DNA from: a virus
IMG/VR virus record: IMGVR_UViG_3300045119_000122
Span: 1-44,926 of that record
Length of the DNA stretch: 44,926 nucleotides
Strand: one strand, 5' to 3'
Below the pieces are notes generated by a model. The model ran no database searches and was not told where the DNA came from. It worked only from the letters and a program-made list of their open reading frames with translations. Shown here piece by piece: positions 2,890 through 21,543 of the stretch (positions are counted from its first letter, which is position 1; each line of letters opens with the position of its first letter). The position numbers and the translations under genes were made by a program.

Positions 2890-3549
2890 ATGAAAACCGT
2901 GACTGCTAAACAAACATTTAAATCCGTGAGCGCTAAGCAAGTTGAGCTGCACGCTGCGTTGGCTGACCGGCTTGGCAAGAAACGCCCAGCAGTAGAATTT
3001 CAATTGCCACAGTATGAGCTAACAGATATTGCTGAGCTGGTAGAGAATCACAAACCAGTTTTGCTTACCTGTCTTAACGCTGCAATTGCACAACTGGCTA
3101 AAGACAAGTTTGCAGCACAGCCTGCTGATTGGACATGGTTTCCAAGTGTAGAGAATGATCTAAACTTGGCTGAATTGGCTAAGTCGTTTGAATCGCAGTC
3201 TCGCAGTCGTGTGCTGACTCTGGAATCTGCCGGCAAGCTCGCAGCTTGGCTTACTCGCAACATGGCAGCAATTGTTACCGGCATTCAAGTTGTGGAACCT
3301 GCTTACATGCCAACACAAGCTCAAGCAATTATCGGAGTTGTAAGCCAGTTTAATAAGTATGAGGCGAAAGGCTCTGAGTTTCTGGCTAAGATCATGTTGC
3401 GGCTTGAGCAGATTGCAGAAGCAATTGCTAGCTCGGATGATTTGGCAGAAGACTTTAGCAGCCAACCAGAACTGGCTAATGTGTATGATGCATTGATTGC
3501 CCGATTCAGTAAGGCAAGTGATGATGAGATTAGCGAGGACGCATTGTAG
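2890..3549 (+). CDS. Acidic helical protein, 219 aa, paralog of 10110..10718. Ends ...EISEDAL
   Basis: Track ORF 2836..3549. The ATG at 2890 is preferred because GGAG precedes it. Followed by a rho-independent terminator. Confidence 0.7.
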   Translation: MKTVTAKQTFKSVSAKQVELHAALADRLGKKRPAVEFQLPQYELTDIAELVENHKPVLLTCLNAAIAQLAKDKFAAQPADWTWFPSVENDLNLAELAKSFESQSRSRVLTLESAGKLAAWLTRNMAAIVTGIQVVEPAYMPTQAQAIIGVVSQFNKYEAKGSEFLAKIMLRLEQIAEAIASSDDLAEDFSSQPELANVYDALIARFSKASDDEISEDAL

Positions 3550-4131: not shown

Positions 4132-4304
4132 TGCAGTTGCCTGTCGGACAGACTGACTGTTATTTCAGTGTAGTTAACAGATTTACAACGGCAGACTTCA
4201 GTTTAATTAAGCACATGATAGTAGACAAAGTGCTGAATGGTTGGAAAGTTGGACTTGAGCAAGATATGAAAACTAAAGAATACACTCTTTATTGGGGAGC
4301 CTAA
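4131..4304 (+). CDS. Hypothetical protein, 57 aa
   Basis: TAATG overlap with the upstream stop. Ends 1 nt before the next ATG. Confidence 0.45.
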   Translation: MQLPVGQTDCYFSVVNRFTTADFSLIKHMIVDKVLNGWKVGLEQDMKTKEYTLYWGA

Positions 4305-4305
4305 T

Positions 4306-4491
4306 ATGATCCTTGCAGCCACCAGCGTTAAAGTATTTATGTTTGTCACGTTTCTTTCCACCGGCTCAGAGGTAAAGTATCAGTTTGATACTGAAGCCAA
4401 TTGCAAAGCTGCAATGCCACCAGTTGTACAGTTGTATAAGTCTTTAGGCGACAAAGTTAATGTGAGCTGCATTGTCGTCGAGCGCAGCTAA
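4306..4491 (+). CDS. Small protein with an N-terminal hydrophobic/signal-like segment, 61 aa
   Basis: Track ORF. GGGGAG SD. Followed by a terminator. Confidence 0.55.
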   Translation: MILAATSVKVFMFVTFLSTGSEVKYQFDTEANCKAAMPPVVQLYKSLGDKVNVSCIVVERS

Positions 4492-4519
4492 CCTAACAAT
4501 ATCGCTAAGTCACATATTC

Positions 4520-4546
4520 AGCCTGGACTAACAATCCGGGCTTTTT
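4520..4546 (+). terminator. Rho-independent terminator
   Basis: AGCCTGGA/TCCGGGCT stem (one mismatch), then TTTTT. Confidence 0.6.
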
Positions 4547-4555
4547 AATGTCTGC

Positions 4556-4966
4556 ATCACGTCCGTCCGGTCACGACGCGCCGACCGTCCGACGGACAAA
4601 TTCTAAACCCCCTCCTCCCCCATGCCCTCCCTCTCCTACTACCACACTCTCCTACTATCTATCTCTCTACCTATCTCTATCTCTCTACCCTCTTAAAATT
4701 CACCAGTAAGAAAGAAAAATTCTTTTGTTTAAAAAACATAGGGGATACAAAACTATACGCAATCCAAGGATATAATATTAACTAACTTTTATTACTTAAC
4801 TTACATTCATTAATTTAATAGGGGGTATAAGTAGGCAGTGTGCGATAGGTAGGGCTAGTGGGGTAGTTAGTGGGTTAGCTAGTAGGTGGTAGATCGGGGG
4901 TGCAGGGGAGGGGGATGTGTGATATCGTCCGTCCGACCGACCGCGTGACGTGACGCGTCCGTCCGA
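4556..4966. other. Composite intergenic element: C/T-rich left arm, AT-rich core, G/A-rich right arm, flanked by CGTCCGTCCG repeats (candidate origin or control region)
   Basis: CGTCCGTCCG at 4560-4569, 4926-4935 and 4956-4965. Palindrome GTCCGACGGAC at 4587-4597. C-runs at 4608-4640. G-runs at about 4821-4915. AT-rich core at about 4694-4820 containing TATAAT (4771-4776). Confidence 0.6.
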
Positions 4967-4991
4967 TTAACCACTAACTAAGAGAACTGTT

Positions 4992-9982: not shown

Positions 9983-9998
9983 AGAAAAAAATCACCCC

Positions 9999-10027
9999 TT
10001 GACGCGGGGGGCCATTTGAGAGACAAT
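9999..10027 (+). promoter_or_regulatory. Candidate promoter TTGACG-17-GACAAT embedded in an 8-bp GC inverted repeat
   Basis: -35 at 9999-10004 and -10 at 10022-10027. CGCGGGGG(10003-10010)/CCCCCGCG(10030-10037) flank the spacer. Confidence 0.35.
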
Positions 10028-10109
10028 CACCCCCGCGATGCAGCATTCCCCGCTGAATTTTCTGCAACACTCTCCGCGAATATCTCGCACTTAATTAAGG
10101 AAACAAATC

Positions 10110-10718
10110 ATGACTCAAGTACAACTGGCAGTAACCACCGACGCTAAGTTCAACTACCGTGAAAACAAAGAAACTAGAGTTAAGCGCCCGTCGCTGGAGC
10201 TGAAAGTTCCTACCGTAACTGTAGCAGCAATTGCTGAGTATCTGGGCAGCGAAGATCCTAAAGTAGTTTCGCTGGTAGTAGATAACATTCAAGCAGTTAT
10301 CACTAACTTGGTTCGCAGCTACGCAGATAACGATCTGGAATTCTCGCAAGAGAAACTGGACGCACTGATTGCTGAAGGCAAGATTGCTCTGGAAGTTGTG
10401 GCTAACCTGCCACGCTCTGAGCGTAACAGCCTCACTAACGAAGATCTGGCAGCCTTTGGCGCAGTTTATTTCAAGCTGGCTCAGGAACTGCTGGACAAGT
10501 CGGAAGGCCAAGCAACTGCTGCTGTTGTTGTATTTAACAGCCGCGTTAAAAAGATTGCTGGTAACGTTGCTGCTCTCAACAAAGTCAAAGCTGACTTGGA
10601 AACTTTCCTTGAGAAAGCTGATGACGCAGTTATTGAAGAGCATGCCCGCTCCCTGCAATATCTGACCAGCAAGATCGACGAGTACTTGGCTGAAGATATC
10701 ACTGAAGACAGCCTGTAA
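10110..10718 (+). CDS. Acidic helical protein, 202 aa, paralog of 2890..3549, probably highly expressed. Ends ...DITEDSL
   Basis: Track ORF. Own promoter candidate and terminator. Codon choice resembles the capsid gene. Confidence 0.8.
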   Translation: MTQVQLAVTTDAKFNYRENKETRVKRPSLELKVPTVTVAAIAEYLGSEDPKVVSLVVDNIQAVITNLVRSYADNDLEFSQEKLDALIAEGKIALEVVANLPRSERNSLTNEDLAAFGAVYFKLAQELLDKSEGQATAAVVVFNSRVKKIAGNVAALNKVKADLETFLEKADDAVIEEHARSLQYLTSKIDEYLAEDITEDSL

Positions 10719-10758
10719 TTCGAAACAAACTTTGAGTAGGCCAACTGCTCAACTACTT

Positions 10759-10777
10759 AGCCCGCCTTGTGCGGGCT
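10759..10777 (+). terminator. Hairpin terminator with a short U-tract, possibly leaky
   Basis: AGCCCGC/GCGGGCT stem, CTTGT loop, then TTTG. Confidence 0.5.
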
Positions 10778-10779
10778 TT

Positions 10780-11482
10780 GTCAGTAGTGAAGTTTGTCCG
10801 CGCAGCCGTTGTGCACAAACCGAGTACGCCAGCAACTTCACAGTGAGGACGAGGAAAAGATACTACAGTTGTGCTAGCGTATCTACTGAGCCGCAACGCA
10901 GGATATTCGTACCTTACCTAATTTAACCCGCCTTTCCTAATTGGATTGTGCGGGTTAAGTCAGTAGTAGGGTTTGTTAGTATCTGCTGTGAGTACGGGTT
11001 CGATCCCCGATAAGCTATTATGCTGAATATGCTGGTGCATAGATAAGACGTAAGACTCAGGGTTGGATTCCCTGCACTAACTTACTTTACTAATCGGAGA
11101 AAGTACCAGAACTAAAAAGACTGGGAAATGCTGAGTATTCCAGACGAATTTGAGCCGGGCACTGGAAGAGAATCTAAAAAGCCCCTTAAAGATTCGGGTC
11201 GGCGGTCACTGCCGCGAAGTTGGTTAGGTCTTATGTCACGGTGAGTTACTAACCTCAGTAGAAAGTGTGACAACAATTGCGTAGCAGACAAGGAAGTTAA
11301 AGGAGACTAAGTTATAGATACTACCCGCTAAGGCTGGTATATACCCTCCTGCTACATGTGGTCGCTGCGCCACGTTAAATCCAGCAGCAACTAATTCAAA
11401 GGTACGCACGCTAACAGTGCTATCTAAAACTGCCTCAGGTTAGCCCAATGCGAATTGGTAACTAGCACTGGGGCTTTTTGTT
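10780..11482 (+). ncRNA. Candidate large structured non-coding RNA region (class unknown)
   Basis: About 700 nt with no credible ORF in a compact genome. Many local hairpins, for example GTGAAGTT(10787-10794)/AACTTCAC(10834-10841), AGATAC(10857-10862)/GTATCT(10878-10883) and CCAAT-GCGA-ATTGG (11445-11458, GNRA loop). Also T-arm-like GGGTTCGATCCCC. A T-run at 11475-11479 is a possible 3' end. Strand and ends are inferred. Confidence 0.35.
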
Positions 11483-11498
11483 GCCACGAGGAAATTAA

Positions 11499-11753
11499 AT
11501 GCTATATCTAACTAGTGTTGCGGTTAGCTTTGTAGCTGTATTCCTAAAAGGTTTTCAACACAAGAATGTAATTGCTGGAAAATACTCAGCTACTTTTTAT
11601 ACTTCATTTGCAATGGCTGCTTTTGATTGGGCTACCATTACAATAGTGTTAAAAGGTGGCTGGATAGTTGCAATAACTGCTGGAACTGGTGCAGCGTTTG
11701 GTATGATTACAGCCATGGCGTTGCATGATAAATTATTTAAATCAAAAGGATAG
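11499..11753 (+). CDS. Small membrane protein with three predicted TM segments (holin-like topology)
   Basis: Track ORF. Hydrophobic segments and a charged C-terminus, HDKLFKSKG. Confidence 0.6.
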   Translation: MLYLTSVAVSFVAVFLKGFQHKNVIAGKYSATFYTSFAMAAFDWATITIVLKGGWIVAITAGTGAAFGMITAMALHDKLFKSKG

Positions 11754-11758
11754 ACAAT

Positions 11759-12067
11759 ATGAGTCAAGTACATTGCACATTTAGTGCAGAAGAAATTTTG
11801 GCTAAGAATGGTTTGACTGAGATTACTAAAGCTAAACCATTTCCGGTAGTGGGCCAGATCTGCTACATCAAACACCAAGTTAAACGCACAAGCTCTGGTG
11901 AAACTCTGGGACTTAATCGCGCAGATGGTAAGCCAGTAGCAGCACTTATTACCGCTGTGTATCTGGATGGCACTGTGCGCACTGGCATCAGTGACGTGTG
12001 GGAAGTAACTCCAGGAACTAACAATACTTGGGAAACAGTCAATCCATTTCATGGTAAGTCGGAGTAA
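11759..12067 (+). CDS. Hypothetical protein, 102 aa
   Basis: Track ORF. Confidence 0.65.
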   Translation: MSQVHCTFSAEEILAKNGLTEITKAKPFPVVGQICYIKHQVKRTSSGETLGLNRADGKPVAALITAVYLDGTVRTGISDVWEVTPGTNNTWETVNPFHGKSE

Positions 12068-12069
12068 GC

Positions 12070-12786
12070 ATGAGCCAGACAGCACAGATTAAAAAGTTCA
12101 ATTTTACAGAGTCACAGCTGACTAAGTTGTGCAAAATGCAAGACGAACTCAATACTTACATTCACCCTAACTGGAAGTGGCAAGGATTTGATTGGGAAAC
12201 TGCTGTAAACGATGAGTGTCTTGAAATTCTAGGACATCTTGGTTGGAAGTGGTGGAAAGATAAAACTTATAAGCAAGGGGTTACTGAAGCTAACAAGGCT
12301 CAGATTAAACTGGAACTGATTGACCTGCTGCATTTTGTAGTTAGTAGCCGTATTGAGAACGCCCCAGATGGAGAGAATGGATTCCTGGAAGTGGGAATTA
12401 ATGTAGCATTTGACCCAACTGGTTACGGATTTTACGAGAGTGTTAAAACTCTGCAACAAGATGCATTGCACTACGGAATTAATACTGACACGGTGCAGTT
12501 TCTTACCAGACTTATGCATCTAGTTGATATGACTGAGCAGGAGATTCTGGAAACTTACACGCAGAAGTATGTGTTGAATAAGTTTCGTCAGGATCACGGA
12601 TATAAAGACGGTAGCTATGTTAAGGAATGGGAACTGGAAGATAATCTTGGTGGTTTGCGTCTCGAAGATAACGAAGTTCTAGCTCGGGAAGTTAAGGCTC
12701 TCGTATTAGAAGGCCAAGATACTACCGACGAAACAATCCTTTACGAGCGGCTAGAGTTGCGCTATAATTCACGCCTGAACAAGTGA
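12070..12786 (+). CDS. All-alpha NTP pyrophosphohydrolase, dimeric-dUTPase-like
   Basis: Pattern ...ECLEILGHLGWKWWKDK...ELIDLLHFVVS resembles dimeric dUTPase (dUTPase_2) motifs. Recalled from memory, not searched. Confidence 0.55.
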   Translation: MSQTAQIKKFNFTESQLTKLCKMQDELNTYIHPNWKWQGFDWETAVNDECLEILGHLGWKWWKDKTYKQGVTEANKAQIKLELIDLLHFVVSSRIENAPDGENGFLEVGINVAFDPTGYGFYESVKTLQQDALHYGINTDTVQFLTRLMHLVDMTEQEILETYTQKYVLNKFRQDHGYKDGSYVKEWELEDNLGGLRLEDNEVLAREVKALVLEGQDTTDETILYERLELRYNSRLNK

Positions 12787-13519: not shown

Positions 13520-13984
13520 ATGGCTAAGTTTGGTCGGGCATTGTGGGAAGCAAGTGACGCAGGACAATCAGTCGGGCAACTAGAGACGGCTGTATCACTG
13601 TGGCTTCGCACTTTAGGAACCCCACTAGACGACCAACTTGGCCTAGCTAATATGATTAGATTGTTAGTAAAGCCAGCAAACTCTCTGTACTTTGCAGAGG
13701 GTATTCCAAAGTTGCCAAGGACAGTAACATCTACTGGTGTAATGGTGCCACACATTCCAGGAATATCTATTCTCTGGGCTAGTGAGGCTAATGCTATTCA
13801 CCCTAGGCTAACTTTGGAATATCTAAAGTATGCAAGTCAAGAAGTAAGGATGAACCTTAGTTGGCTTGAGTATGCCCTTGCCAAGGCGATCGGGTCGCTG
13901 TATAATTCGGGCGTAGATTGGACAAGCCGATTGGGTAAGAAGATTGAAACAATTGCAGGAATCGAAAAGGTAGACTGGCTATGA
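13520..13984 (+). CDS. Hypothetical protein, 154 aa
   Basis: Track ORF 13517..13984. The ATG at 13520 follows GTGGGAG. Confidence 0.65.
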   Translation: MAKFGRALWEASDAGQSVGQLETAVSLWLRTLGTPLDDQLGLANMIRLLVKPANSLYFAEGIPKLPRTVTSTGVMVPHIPGISILWASEANAIHPRLTLEYLKYASQEVRMNLSWLEYALAKAIGSLYNSGVDWTSRLGKKIETIAGIEKVDWL

Positions 13985-20434: not shown

Positions 20435-20968
20435 ATGGCTAGTACCTTGATTGTGTTAGATTATATGTTTCACGGTGTTCGTTGTTCAGAAAAAGAATAT
20501 AATTATTTACTAGAAGCTTACAAGGGAGTAACAAATCCTTTTGTAAATGAAATTGAAAACTCTCTACAGTGGTTCCGAGATGGCTGTCCGGGTCCCAAAG
20601 TAAGTAAACAATTGCTTGAATCAGCTGCACGACATGAAGTTAGTAAACTCGTGGAACCACAAGTAGCTAGCAGTGTGGAAGCAACTCTAGCTCAACGCGG
20701 TTCCCGTTACGGTGATTTCACGGATCATGCTAGATTGTGCCAAGCGTTGCAGCAAGAGTTGCAAGAATTCAAACCTATTAGCGAGCCTGCTGGTGCAGTA
20801 ACTAAATGGGAGAAGCTATCTCCTGTTCAGCGCCAAGCACTTACAGTTATTATGGATAAAGTAGCACGTATCCTTACTGGTGATCCTAACTACGATGACA
20901 ACTGGCATGACATTCAAGGTTATGCTAAGCTTGTTGAAGATCGTTTGCCTAAGAAGGAATCGCACTAA
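20435..20968 (+). CDS. Hypothetical protein whose C-terminal half is DUF6378-like
   Basis: Pattern RGSRYGDF...IMDKVARILTGDPNYDDNWHDIQGYAKL, recalled from phage DUF6378 proteins. Not searched. Confidence 0.4.
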   Translation: MASTLIVLDYMFHGVRCSEKEYNYLLEAYKGVTNPFVNEIENSLQWFRDGCPGPKVSKQLLESAARHEVSKLVEPQVASSVEATLAQRGSRYGDFTDHARLCQALQQELQEFKPISEPAGAVTKWEKLSPVQRQALTVIMDKVARILTGDPNYDDNWHDIQGYAKLVEDRLPKKESH

Positions 20969-21543
20969 TGGCAACTCCATCTCGCAAATACAAACCTAAA
21001 GCTCACGGTGTACTAGACATTGAAACACTGTCCACTGACAAGCGTGCCGCAATTGTCCACATGGCGATAGTAATTGCCTATGGTGGTGGCGGACATAATC
21101 AATGGGAAGCATTCATTAAACCTAGTGAGTACGTAGGTTCCCAGTTTGAAATTGACCAAGACACTTGGAACTGGCACGAGAAAGAGCATCCCGGATATCT
21201 TACAATGTGTGAGGAGCGGGGAGTAACTCTGGCTGAGGCGCTGCAAGGTCTGGTAGCTTTCATGGCTGACTACGCAACCGAGTTTGAACTTCACATGTGG
21301 TCGCAAGGTAAAGACTTTGATTTCCCAATTGTGGATTGGGCATTGAAGAATGCGGGACTTAATGCACCTTGGACTTATAGCCGAGTGCACTGTCTGCGTG
21401 ATTTGGTTTGGTTGAATCCAACTAGCCGAGTAAGTGGCACTCAGCAAGATAAGCACAACGCACTTAGCGATGCACAGTGGGAAGCAGGTCAGCTGCGAGC
21501 TGTGATTGCTAATTCAAATTGGTATCAGAGACTATTCTCATGA
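20968..21543 (+). CDS. DEDDh-type 3'-5' exonuclease
   Basis: VLDIETLS (DxE), KDFDFPIV and HNALSDAQ (Hx4D). TAATG coupling. Confidence 0.6.
   Translation: MATPSRKYKPKAHGVLDIETLSTDKRAAIVHMAIVIAYGGGGHNQWEAFIKPSEYVGSQFEIDQDTWNWHEKEHPGYLTMCEERGVTLAEALQGLVAFMADYATEFELHMWSQGKDFDFPIVDWALKNAGLNAPWTYSRVHCLRDLVWLNPTSRVSGTQQDKHNALSDAQWEAGQLRAVIANSNWYQRLFS

Follow-up and report, generated by a model that had tools for sequence, protein, structure and literature searches.

What does a phage genome carry in 780 nt between two genes in which no conserved open reading frame (ORF) can be found? The question is raised by the IMG/VR virus record IMGVR_UViG_3300045119_000122, the whole 44,926-nt stretch of which was analyzed (hereafter the window) and looks like a complete phage genome of about 45 kb, with early and replication genes on the plus strand at about 2.8–22.1 kb and structural genes on the minus strand. 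The gap (10719–11498) separates the gene for a 202-aa protein (10110–10718) from a gene starting at 11499, and a first-pass annotation, made from the letters alone, had taken it for a candidate large phage non-coding RNA (ncRNA). Comparison with related phages upheld a non-coding, structured plus-strand RNA with covariation in the relatives, but not one large RNA of fixed architecture. The explanation to which we give somewhat better than even chances is a co-transcribed phage island of transfer RNAs (tRNAs) and stable RNAs, built as a cassette-like array of self-contained structured RNAs on the plus strand, for which a role as tRNA mimics or decoys and gating by a terminator are suggested.

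For comparison, 19 other distinct loci were fetched by homology to the 202-aa protein. An ORF-free gap of about 140–930 nt directly follows the 202-aa gene in 19 of the 19, and gene callers left it empty in every assembly. In the window, the longest ORFs of the gap have 64 aa (plus strand, TTG start, 10732–10926) and 59 aa (minus strand), and ORFs of 25–64 aa are present on both strands (e.g., 11128–11244, 38 aa). A tblastn search of all six-frame pieces against the homologous gaps of the relatives revealed no conserved ORF, in agreement with the first-pass annotation, which had described the region as ORF-free and the ORF at 10732–10926 as apparently spurious. The matches obtained were 8–36 aa long, and identical nucleotide blocks were hit in several frames and from either strand, which indicates conservation at the nucleotide and not the protein level. 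The statement that this is the longest non-coding stretch of the genome was essentially right: the interval 10745–11498 is the second-longest without an ORF of at least 65 aa, and the longer one at this threshold (4132–4991) holds two small called genes. Within the latter, about 500 nt of the early region (4492–4991) are free of called genes and contain a terminator-like hairpin with a T-run at 4520–4552.

The slot behind the 202-aa gene holds tRNA genes in five relatives, one per locus, namely tRNA-Asn(gtt) in L011, L019, and L023 and tRNA-Arg(tct) in L014 and L015. This accords with the earlier remark that large phage RNAs often lie beside tRNAs. Two further loci carry aberrant tRNA-like genes on which ARAGORN was silent. 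At L008 4998–5099, a tRNA has a 34-nt hairpin-bearing insertion in the anticodon loop (Rfam score of 46 bits), and at L025 3488–3566, a cloverleaf with an encoded CCA has a 26-nt rod replacing the anticodon arm. With tRNA or tRNA-like genes in seven relatives (L008, L011, L014, L015, L019, L023, and L025), the slot is best read as a tRNA/small-RNA island; phage tRNA islands as usually defined are clusters of tRNA genes in one orientation, often accompanied by other small RNAs, and here no relative has more than one tRNA. The window itself has none of these genes: ARAGORN called neither a tRNA nor a transfer-messenger RNA (tmRNA) gene there, no Rfam tmRNA family was matched, and no match to RF00005 was obtained even at E ≤ 10. 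The best reading is that this phage would have retained just non-decoding, partly tRNA-derived RNAs.

The interior of the gap is mosaic, and a BLAST search with the gap showed that different segments are common to different subsets of relatives. The array of the window runs short hairpin A, W1 (unique to it), long hairpin A, T2, PK, S, R, and Z, and the relatives mix A, T2, PK, S, R, and Z with tRNAs and with families not present in the window (labelled B, E, U, V, and Y). The order is not fixed, with PK before E in L008 and after E in L016, and with Y and R swapped between L002 and L009. The loci L032 and L033 encode an identical 202-aa protein (P0005), while their arrays read A-PK-S-R-Z and A-T2-PK-Y-Z, respectively, which argues for a very recent exchange of cassettes. 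The differing module sets span L032 3610–4135 and L033 1274–1703. Just the 5′ hairpin with the motif GUCAGUAG and the 3′ hairpin/terminator (about 45 and 90 nt) recur in most relatives. In a duplex search, the GUCAGUAG motif (GUCAGUAGURG) was frequently paired to a CUACU-type strand further downstream, by which the next module is closed; the z values were modest (−3.3 to +1.1), and the pairing is given as a description only. In the most distant relative (L030, 27% identity in the 202-aa protein), the gap at 3090–3137 consists of GUCAGUAG pairing with CUACUGAC around a small hairpin and then a terminator; in this reduced form, the GUCAGUAG motif outlasts all other modules. Outside the fetched loci, neither the gap (nucleotide) nor the 202-aa gene (protein) had a match in INPHARED, comprising 50,697 deposited phage genomes. 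The nearest phages by polymerase and capsid, at 30–39% amino acid identity, were Aeromonas phage P5, Polaromonas phage Tiera, EBPR podovirus 3, and Pseudomonas phages 119X/PaP2, and no comparable gap was found beside the helicase gene of Aeromonas phage P5.

Covariation was evaluated with 500 shuffles and slid controls. Four modules of the window passed (hairpin A, T2, PK, and Z1): compensatory changes were detected in all four, 0/500 shuffles reached the observed score, and all slid controls were beaten. Hairpin A is present in two copies in the 45-kb window, both in the gap, and these constitute the internal duplication noticed previously (a hairpin plus GTCAGTAGT at 10759–10788 and 10923–10969). 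The long two-tier form (10923–10969, plus strand) reads UUAACCCGC-C-UU-UCC-UAAUU-GGA-UU-GU-GCGGGUUAA and is followed by GUCAGUAGUAG; its hairpin (10923–10958) has a 9-bp outer stem, a U-rich internal loop, and a 3–4-bp inner stem. In the alignment of 17 copies, 83.5% of the cells were paired with six compensatory pairs, the score was 0.296 vs. 0.101 for shuffled alignments (0/500), and the slid controls were at most 49% paired. Together with GUCAGUAG, the copy at 10923–10967 is identical to L025 3425–3470 at 44/45 positions, and the flanking 202-aa proteins share 38% identity; this would point to a very strong sequence constraint or to horizontal exchange of the hairpin A element. A search with the 19-mer of hairpin A gave matches in the family alone.

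The short form of hairpin A (10759–10790, plus strand), A-GCCCGC-CUUGU-GCGGGC-U with the tail UUUGU and then GUCAGUAGUGA, corresponds at 10759–10777 to the outer stem of the long form minus the inner tier. Identical or near-identical copies follow the gene in L008, L010, L014, L015, and L016. The first-pass annotation had spoken of a terminator of the upstream gene; the hairpin at 10759–10777 does exist, but as a weak short form of a conserved hairpin, which in most relatives has no U-tract at all. It is probably a weak and leaky terminator, and its U-tract was too short to be scored in the terminator scan. The first hairpin after the gene is long hairpin A in 11 loci, mostly without a U-tract, and for this reason the array would be co-transcribed with the 202-aa gene. 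Terminators of the same shape as the short form are frequent in Pseudomonas phages and plasmids. A BLAST search of the hairpin A unit against plasmids and phages returned single terminator-like hairpins (Pseudomonas/Erwinia) and no arrays, and in the matches from Erwinia phage RF1 and a P. syringae plasmid, the terminator is followed by a ribosome-binding site (RBS) or by unrelated sequence. The minus strand of the short form gave an echo of the Rfam family CRISPR-DR28 at 21.9 bits (E = 0.38), which is below the gathering score of 35. With ordinary single terminators, never in arrays, among the matches of hairpin A and a sub-threshold echo as the only signal, the idea of an RNA anti-CRISPR or solitary CRISPR-repeat mimic has no support from these searches.

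The T2 module (10964–11092, plus strand) is a 'twin T-arm' tRNA-like RNA of 129 nt with five instances (the window, L001, L011, L019, and L033), in which the flanking proteins are 60–74% identical to that of the window. Its 16-bp closing helix P1 (10964–10980/11076–11092) has a 7-bp acceptor-like top, a 1×1 mismatch, and a 9-bp base. The helix P2 (10989–10994/11021–11026) carries T-arm 1 (10995–11009), which is followed by a D-arm-like hairpin AUGC-UGGU-GCAU (11029–11040) and T-arm 2 (11058–11074), and the top 7 bp of P1 abut T-arm 2 via one bulged C. The conserved strands are AUCUGGUGUGAGUA and AGAUAAGACGUA. Of the cells in the alignment, 94.3% were paired, and 12/35 pairs were compensatory (0/500 shuffles; slid controls at most 51% paired). 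The T2 covariance model found one copy in each of the five genomes, with 131–180 bits on the plus strand and no more than 19 bits on the minus strand; real tRNAs scored 10–11 bits against it.

The tRNA T-arm-like motifs mentioned in the first-pass annotation are the two T2 hairpins at 10994–11010 (ACGGG-UUCGAUC-CCCGA, four stem pairs) and 11058–11074 (CAGGG-UUGGAUU-CCCUG, five stem pairs, the C56-like position being occupied by G). They agree with the T-arm of tRNAs, a 5-bp stem that is closed by G53-C61 and bears a 7-nt loop U-U-C-R-A-N-N. In both, the G-C pair that closes the loop is preserved, as are U and A at loop positions 1 and 5, respectively, and both stems covary in the relatives. 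In the T2 of the window, two exchanges are found together: the G of the first CUGGUG motif is replaced by C (column 28 of alignment A6), and the C56-like base of T-loop 2 (column 122) is replaced by G. This swap, a single event, is what would be expected for an elbow pair of the G19:C56 type. The one Rfam echo in T2, a sub-threshold one, came from the tRNA-like family mascRNA on 11031–11081 (15 bits, E = 6.5). The 19-mer of T2 was found in IMG/VR in the phage's own family alone, and a Bartonella match to the T2 19-mer, with no T-arm nearby, was taken as chance.

The PK module (11138–11190, plus strand) is an H-type pseudoknot with nine instances in four subtypes. It is formed by S1 (11138–11143/11162–11167) and S2 (11149–11160/11181–11190) with an A-rich linker (11168–11180). 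The proportion of paired cells was 84%, and compensatory pairs were 5/6 in S1 and 3/10 in S2 (0/500 shuffles; slid controls at most 51%). The 3′ unit Z begins with the Z1 hairpin (11400–11425, plus strand), in which the lower stem AGGUA/UAUCU is invariant, one C is bulged, and the 4 bp of the upper stem covary. Across 13 distinct sequences, 96.6% of the cells were paired and 4/4 upper-stem pairs were compensatory (0/500 shuffles). Z1 is unique in the 45-kb window, and 16 extra IMG/VR matches to the Z pattern, all without the hairpin, were taken as chance. A promoter function of Z1 was rejected because the spacing and the −10 element do not fit and the hairpin is unique in the genome.

The island is closed by a predicted intrinsic-type terminator (11432–11479, plus strand), a long and irregular hairpin GCCUCAG...CUGGGGC followed by U5. 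The GNRA-capped hairpin CCAAT-GCGA-ATTGG and the T-run near the 3′ end, both pointed out before, are its cap (11445–11458) and its T5 (11475–11479). By sequence, it has the GC-rich hairpin directly before a U-run that characterizes Rho-independent terminators, and it was missed by a simple terminator scan because the stem is irregular. The fold of the 3′ module (11399–11480) has an energy of −32 kcal/mol (z = −4.5), and a stem with a U-run stands at the same place in every Z-bearing locus (13 aligned), the stem sequences being different.

The remaining modules of the array have fewer sequences or weaker folds. Module S (11205–11271, plus strand) has a closing stem GUCAC/GUGAC, an inner stem GGUUAGG/CUAACC, and a D-arm-like string AAGUUGGUUAGG; it is common to the window, L018, L019, and L032, and RNAalifold gave 14 pairs, three of them compensatory, from these four sequences. 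Module R (11312–11390, plus strand) is common to the window, L002, L009, L017, L018, and L032. Its supported part is just the 5′ hairpin (11323–11338) with the loop UAAG within GCUAAGGC (five pairs, three compensatory). Module W1 (10780–10918, plus strand) occurs in this phage alone, and its hairpin (10780–10848), closed by GUCAGUAGUGAAGUU/AACUUCACAGUGA, is predicted from the minimum free energy fold and the duplex search (z = −0.5).

The array has a clear polarity: the tRNAs, the T-arms, and the U-runs after hairpins are all read on the plus strand. In the gaps of the family, T-arm-like hairpins reach a density of 0.77 per kb, without exception on the plus strand, vs. 0.009 per kb (3 hairpins) in 340 kb outside them. 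The 16 hairpins in the gaps comprise 5 in called tRNAs, 10 in T2 elements, and 1 in L025. The ratio of G.U to A.C in the tested helices was 30:7 overall, with 12:2 in T2, 13:0 in Z1, and 5:5 in hairpin A. Taken as a whole, the gap region has a folding energy that is just weakly unusual (z = −2.75 on the plus strand and −1.67 on the minus strand, 20 shuffles). Thermodynamics alone is weak evidence for structure, and the comparative evidence is strong.

According to the island explanation, the gap would be the non-coding tail of the transcription unit of the 202-aa gene. Host RNA polymerase would start at a putative sigma70-type promoter upstream of this gene (9999–10027, plus strand; TTGACG-17 nt-GACAAT after an A-tract, from a consensus scan), pass the weak hairpin A and then W1, long hairpin A, T2, PK, S, R, and Z1, and mostly end at the strong hairpin with U5 at 11432–11479. 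The precursor would be cut at the module borders by the host RNases P, Z, E, and III into stable small RNAs. T2 would show two tRNA-type elbows (a T-loop with a GG-containing D-loop analogue) on the 7-bp acceptor-like helix and may serve as a tRNA mimic that binds or titrates a reader of tRNA shape, either a processing/modification enzyme or a tRNA-targeting defence nuclease. Finally, Z1 and the terminator would close the unit and limit read-through into the three following promoterless genes.

A number of points weigh against this explanation. The order of modules is partly kept (A first; PK before S before R; Z last), which also fits an ancestral multi-domain RNA losing domains. W1 and the linkers 11093–11137 and 11272–11311 have no counterpart in the fetched loci, and the comparisons comprise five sequences for T2, four for module S, and six for module R. 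When folded as single sequences, T2 and PK have unremarkable energies (z about −1), hairpin A has no G.U/A.C strand bias, and the change at columns 28 and 122 of T2 occurred once. T2 has the bulged C between T-arm 2 and the acceptor-like helix and has neither an anticodon arm nor an encoded CCA, so its recognition by tRNA enzymes is not guaranteed. The phage is known from assemblies alone, and no module points to one given partner or defence system.

The conserved ends would also suit one large multi-domain ncRNA, GOLLD/ROOL-like in concept, with hairpin A and GUCAGUAG as its 5′ end, Z as its 3′ end, and optional internal domains, which would work as one molecule and might multimerize. This alternative is doubtful, though it carries the most weight among the rivals. 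About 700 nt lie between the weak and the strong terminator with no convincing internal promoter, the module order is partly conserved as stated above, and GOLLD likewise has a conserved 3′ region and a variable 5′ region, sometimes with embedded tRNAs, and occurs near phage tRNA islands; its function is unknown (PMC12286853, PMC5737381). GOLLD and ROOL are encoded by phages or prophages and lie near tRNA islands; the array has in common with them that it is phage-borne, stands beside tRNAs, and has variable parts. However, the suggestion of the first-pass annotation that the region may belong to one of these classes did not hold. Rfam 15 was searched at the gathering score with the window as well as 12 relatives, and three gaps were searched with a cutoff of E ≤ 10 or E ≤ 5 (the window region 10600–11600 at E ≤ 10). 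The GOLLD covariance model gave no match at the gathering score in the window or the 12 relatives, nor at E ≤ 10 on 10600–11600, and no matches to ROOL, HEARO, OLE, group I/II introns, or another family were obtained. The output consisted of genuine tRNAs in the relatives and weak, terminator-like echoes of Yfr1, NsiR1, Yfr10, CRISPR-DR28, and mascRNA, those on the window region being at chance level. The other possibility raised at that time, something new, is in line with the lack of a match to any known RNA family in Rfam 15, and the module families appear undescribed.

The architecture also speaks against a single molecule. About 135 nt (45 + 90 nt) are kept in most relatives, as opposed to the 400-nt pseudoknotted core of GOLLD/ROOL, and the interior is made of independent, interchangeable modules that are replaced wholesale even with identical flanking proteins. 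Each tested module closes on itself, and no long-range pairing between modules was seen. In addition, the functional tRNA genes inside the array of five loci must be excised.

It is unlikely that the gap is mainly a cis-regulatory boundary, in which hairpin A/GUCAGUAG and Z1 would be nut-/put-like sites controlling the two terminators and timing the downstream genes, with the interior being secondary. About 500 nt of covarying interior (T2, PK, and S) and the tRNA genes of the slot would be left unexplained, no other terminator of the genome has either motif, and no antiterminator protein was found in the ORF scans of the phage. The ends are nevertheless suited to such a function: the lower stem of Z1 and its flanks are sequence-invariant and its upper stem covaries, the conservation of hairpin A far exceeds that of the proteins next to it, and the RBS/start junction follows the terminator closely. 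The distance from the U-run to the next start codon is 17–35 nt, with a conserved RBS/start junction regardless of the downstream ORF, which leaves no room for a promoter, and the next promoter-like sites are at 12740–12768 and 13878–13906; on these grounds the three genes at 11499–12786 probably depend on read-through. For module Z alone, a cis-regulatory reading is plausible and compatible with the island explanation. At 11480–11501, as at the same junction in 14 relatives, the pattern G(Y)Y..RGAGGAAAAUAA..AUG is kept though the following ORF differs. The ORF after the Z terminator encodes an 84-aa holin-like protein (phrog_7045) in the window, and unrelated ORFs are found elsewhere.

A decaying tRNA gene cluster, whose T-arm-like pieces and hairpins would be non-functional remnants and recombination scars, was also considered and is quite unlikely. 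T2 is kept whole in five phages with 12 compensatory pairs, 94% pairing, and a closing helix that no tRNA has, and PK, Z1, and hairpin A covary too, while remnants would not keep base pairing. The tRNA genes in the slot of the relatives, the tRNA-like strings in several modules (T-arms, the D-loop-like UGGU, and AAGUUGGUUAGG in S), and the rapid turnover of content are the features that decay would explain.

The position among the replication genes, with a helicase gene upstream and nuclease and polymerase genes downstream, the repeated hairpin A without G.U vs. A.C strand bias, and conserved flanks that could be recombination anchors would be consistent with a DNA-level element, such as a replication origin, a packaging site, or a recombination hotspot of DNA hairpins. 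Such an element is very unlikely given that the T-arms are on the plus strand only, the G.U:A.C ratio is 25:2 in T2 plus Z1, the covariance model scores ten-fold lower on the minus strand, and genuine tRNA genes and U-tract terminators lie on the plus strand; moreover, there are no iterons or AT-rich stretch, the GC content (43–51%) being at or above that of the neighbouring genes. An attP site of a temperate phage with a tRNA 3′ end was rejected, as no integrase was found among the 47 ORFs and the T-arm stems differ compensatorily inside a larger conserved fold. That the gap encodes one or more small proteins (e.g., 10732–10926, 64 aa, or 11128–11244, 38 aa) is scarcely credible, as the 25–64-aa ORFs on both strands are its sole support, none of them is conserved, gene callers passed over the gap in every assembly, and the ORFs overlap covarying RNA helices.

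Several known systems resemble parts of the island. The T4 tRNA cluster is made as precursors that are processed by host RNases. The T4 tRNA region also yields two small stable RNAs, RNAC and RNAD, of unknown role (PMC3014915). As in that region, tRNA genes (here in five relatives) and other small structured RNAs stand side by side on one strand. Unlike it, the window has no tRNA gene, the modules have no INPHARED homologues, the content is shuffled between close relatives, and the island would be the 3′ tail of a protein-coding unit. In the virulent Pseudomonas phage PAK_P3, the abundant and genus-conserved ncRNA1 and ncRNA2 have no start site of their own and are processed from the 3′ UTR (untranslated region) of the upstream gene (PMC10914365). 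Expression and processing were shown for the PAK_P3 ncRNAs, whereas both are deduced for the island, and there is no sequence relation.

The design of T2 can be compared with other tRNA-like RNAs. As in the tRNA-like domain of tmRNA and in mascRNA, an acceptor-like helix is stacked on a T-arm, and the anticodon arm is replaced by other RNA. The D-loop analogue without a D-stem (AUCUGGUG) is presumably akin to the tmRNA D-loop, a likeness that serves as a lead only. T2 differs from tmRNA in that a tag reading frame, a G3-U70 pair, and a CCA end are all missing, and its helix continues for 9 more bp. In the bacterial Y RNAs (YrlA), the 5′ and 3′ ends join in a long stem that carries a tRNA-like module; phages encode some of these RNAs, and one YrlA RNA is a substrate of RNase P (PMC4201824). 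Their genes have an rsr (Ro60/TROVE) gene as a same-strand neighbour at a distance of up to about 4 kb, and the RNAs have the motif GNCGAAN0-1G (PMC4201824). T2 follows this type of design, a long terminal stem with T-arm/D-arm mimics, through its 16-bp P1, two T-arms, and D-arm-like hairpin, but the resemblance is one of design only: T2 has two T-arms, the GNCGAA motif was not seen in the T2 alignment, no Rfam match to YrlA was obtained, and no TROVE domain, and hence no rsr neighbour, was found among the 47 ORFs with Pfam/PHROGs.

Phage tRNA loci are reported to be able to serve as anti-defence loci against a tRNA-cleaving system (PMC13096335). A counter-defence role, if the island RNAs have one, would thus have a precedent. 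A bolder version of the island explanation, which we put forward tentatively, would make T2 the founding member of a 'double-elbow' class of tRNA mimics and the gap a set of swapped cassettes (T2, the rod-anticodon tRNA-likes of L025/L008, and the pseudoknot) that titrate readers of tRNA shape, whether tRNA-targeting defence nucleases or the tRNA-processing machinery. The gap would then be an RNA-based counter-defence or take-over island, with the hyper-conserved hairpin A plus GUCAGUAGUAG and the Z unit as signals for processing and anchors for recombination.

A long-standing puzzle is posed by phage tRNA islands and by the structured RNAs of unexplained role in their neighbourhood (T4 RNAC/RNAD, GOLLD, and ROOL). 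This uncultured podovirus-like clade with genomes of about 45 kb offers a compact cross-genome example, with a fixed slot, conserved ends, and an exchanging interior that swaps tRNA genes, aberrant tRNA-likes, and at least four RNA motifs that have covariation support and are not represented in Rfam. As a candidate for tRNA mimicry by a DNA phage, the twin-T-arm RNA is specific and testable. Should RNAs of this kind bind tRNA-recognizing enzymes or defence nucleases, an RNA layer would be added to phage counter-defence; if the array acts as one molecule instead, a large modular phage RNA of a new type would be at hand. In both cases, the motifs can be used for RNA family databases and virome searches.

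The 202-aa gene (10110–10718, plus strand) always stands directly before the RNA island in the homologue comparison. Its product has 46 homologous protein clusters, many of them on phage contigs of about 45 kb in public assemblies, and belongs to no Pfam or PHROG family. The AlphaFold2 model (pLDDT 85) is mostly helical and has no fold match in the PDB. A role of the protein as an RNA-binding partner or single-stranded DNA-binding protein was considered and found no support from a family or a fold match. Upstream of the gene, most close relatives have an A-tract with TTGAC(G/C)-17 nt-NANAAT, and its distance to the start codon is kept. At 9985–10109, a G-rich/C-rich inverted repeat CGCGGGGGG...CACCCCCGCG spans the promoter spacer and the start of the 5′ UTR of about 80 nt, and the layout of this promoter region is kept in most close relatives. 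The motif GUCAGUAG was rejected as a promoter or general signal; its exact form occurs twice in the genome, both times in the gap, and has no sigma70-like fit. In the unique W1 segment, a weak sigma70-like site (10837–10864; TTCACA-16 nt-GATACT, 9/12 matches) could be an internal promoter for the downstream modules, although its score is no better than those of chance-level matches elsewhere. Comparison of the 47 ORFs with Pfam/PHROGs revealed no phage RNA polymerase, integrase, TROVE/Rsr, RtcB, RNA ligase, or CCA-adding enzyme. The sole RNA-related enzyme detected in the genome has an Rv2179c-like 3′-5′ exoribonuclease domain (20968–21540; E = 2.9e-21), and this protein could trim the island RNAs.

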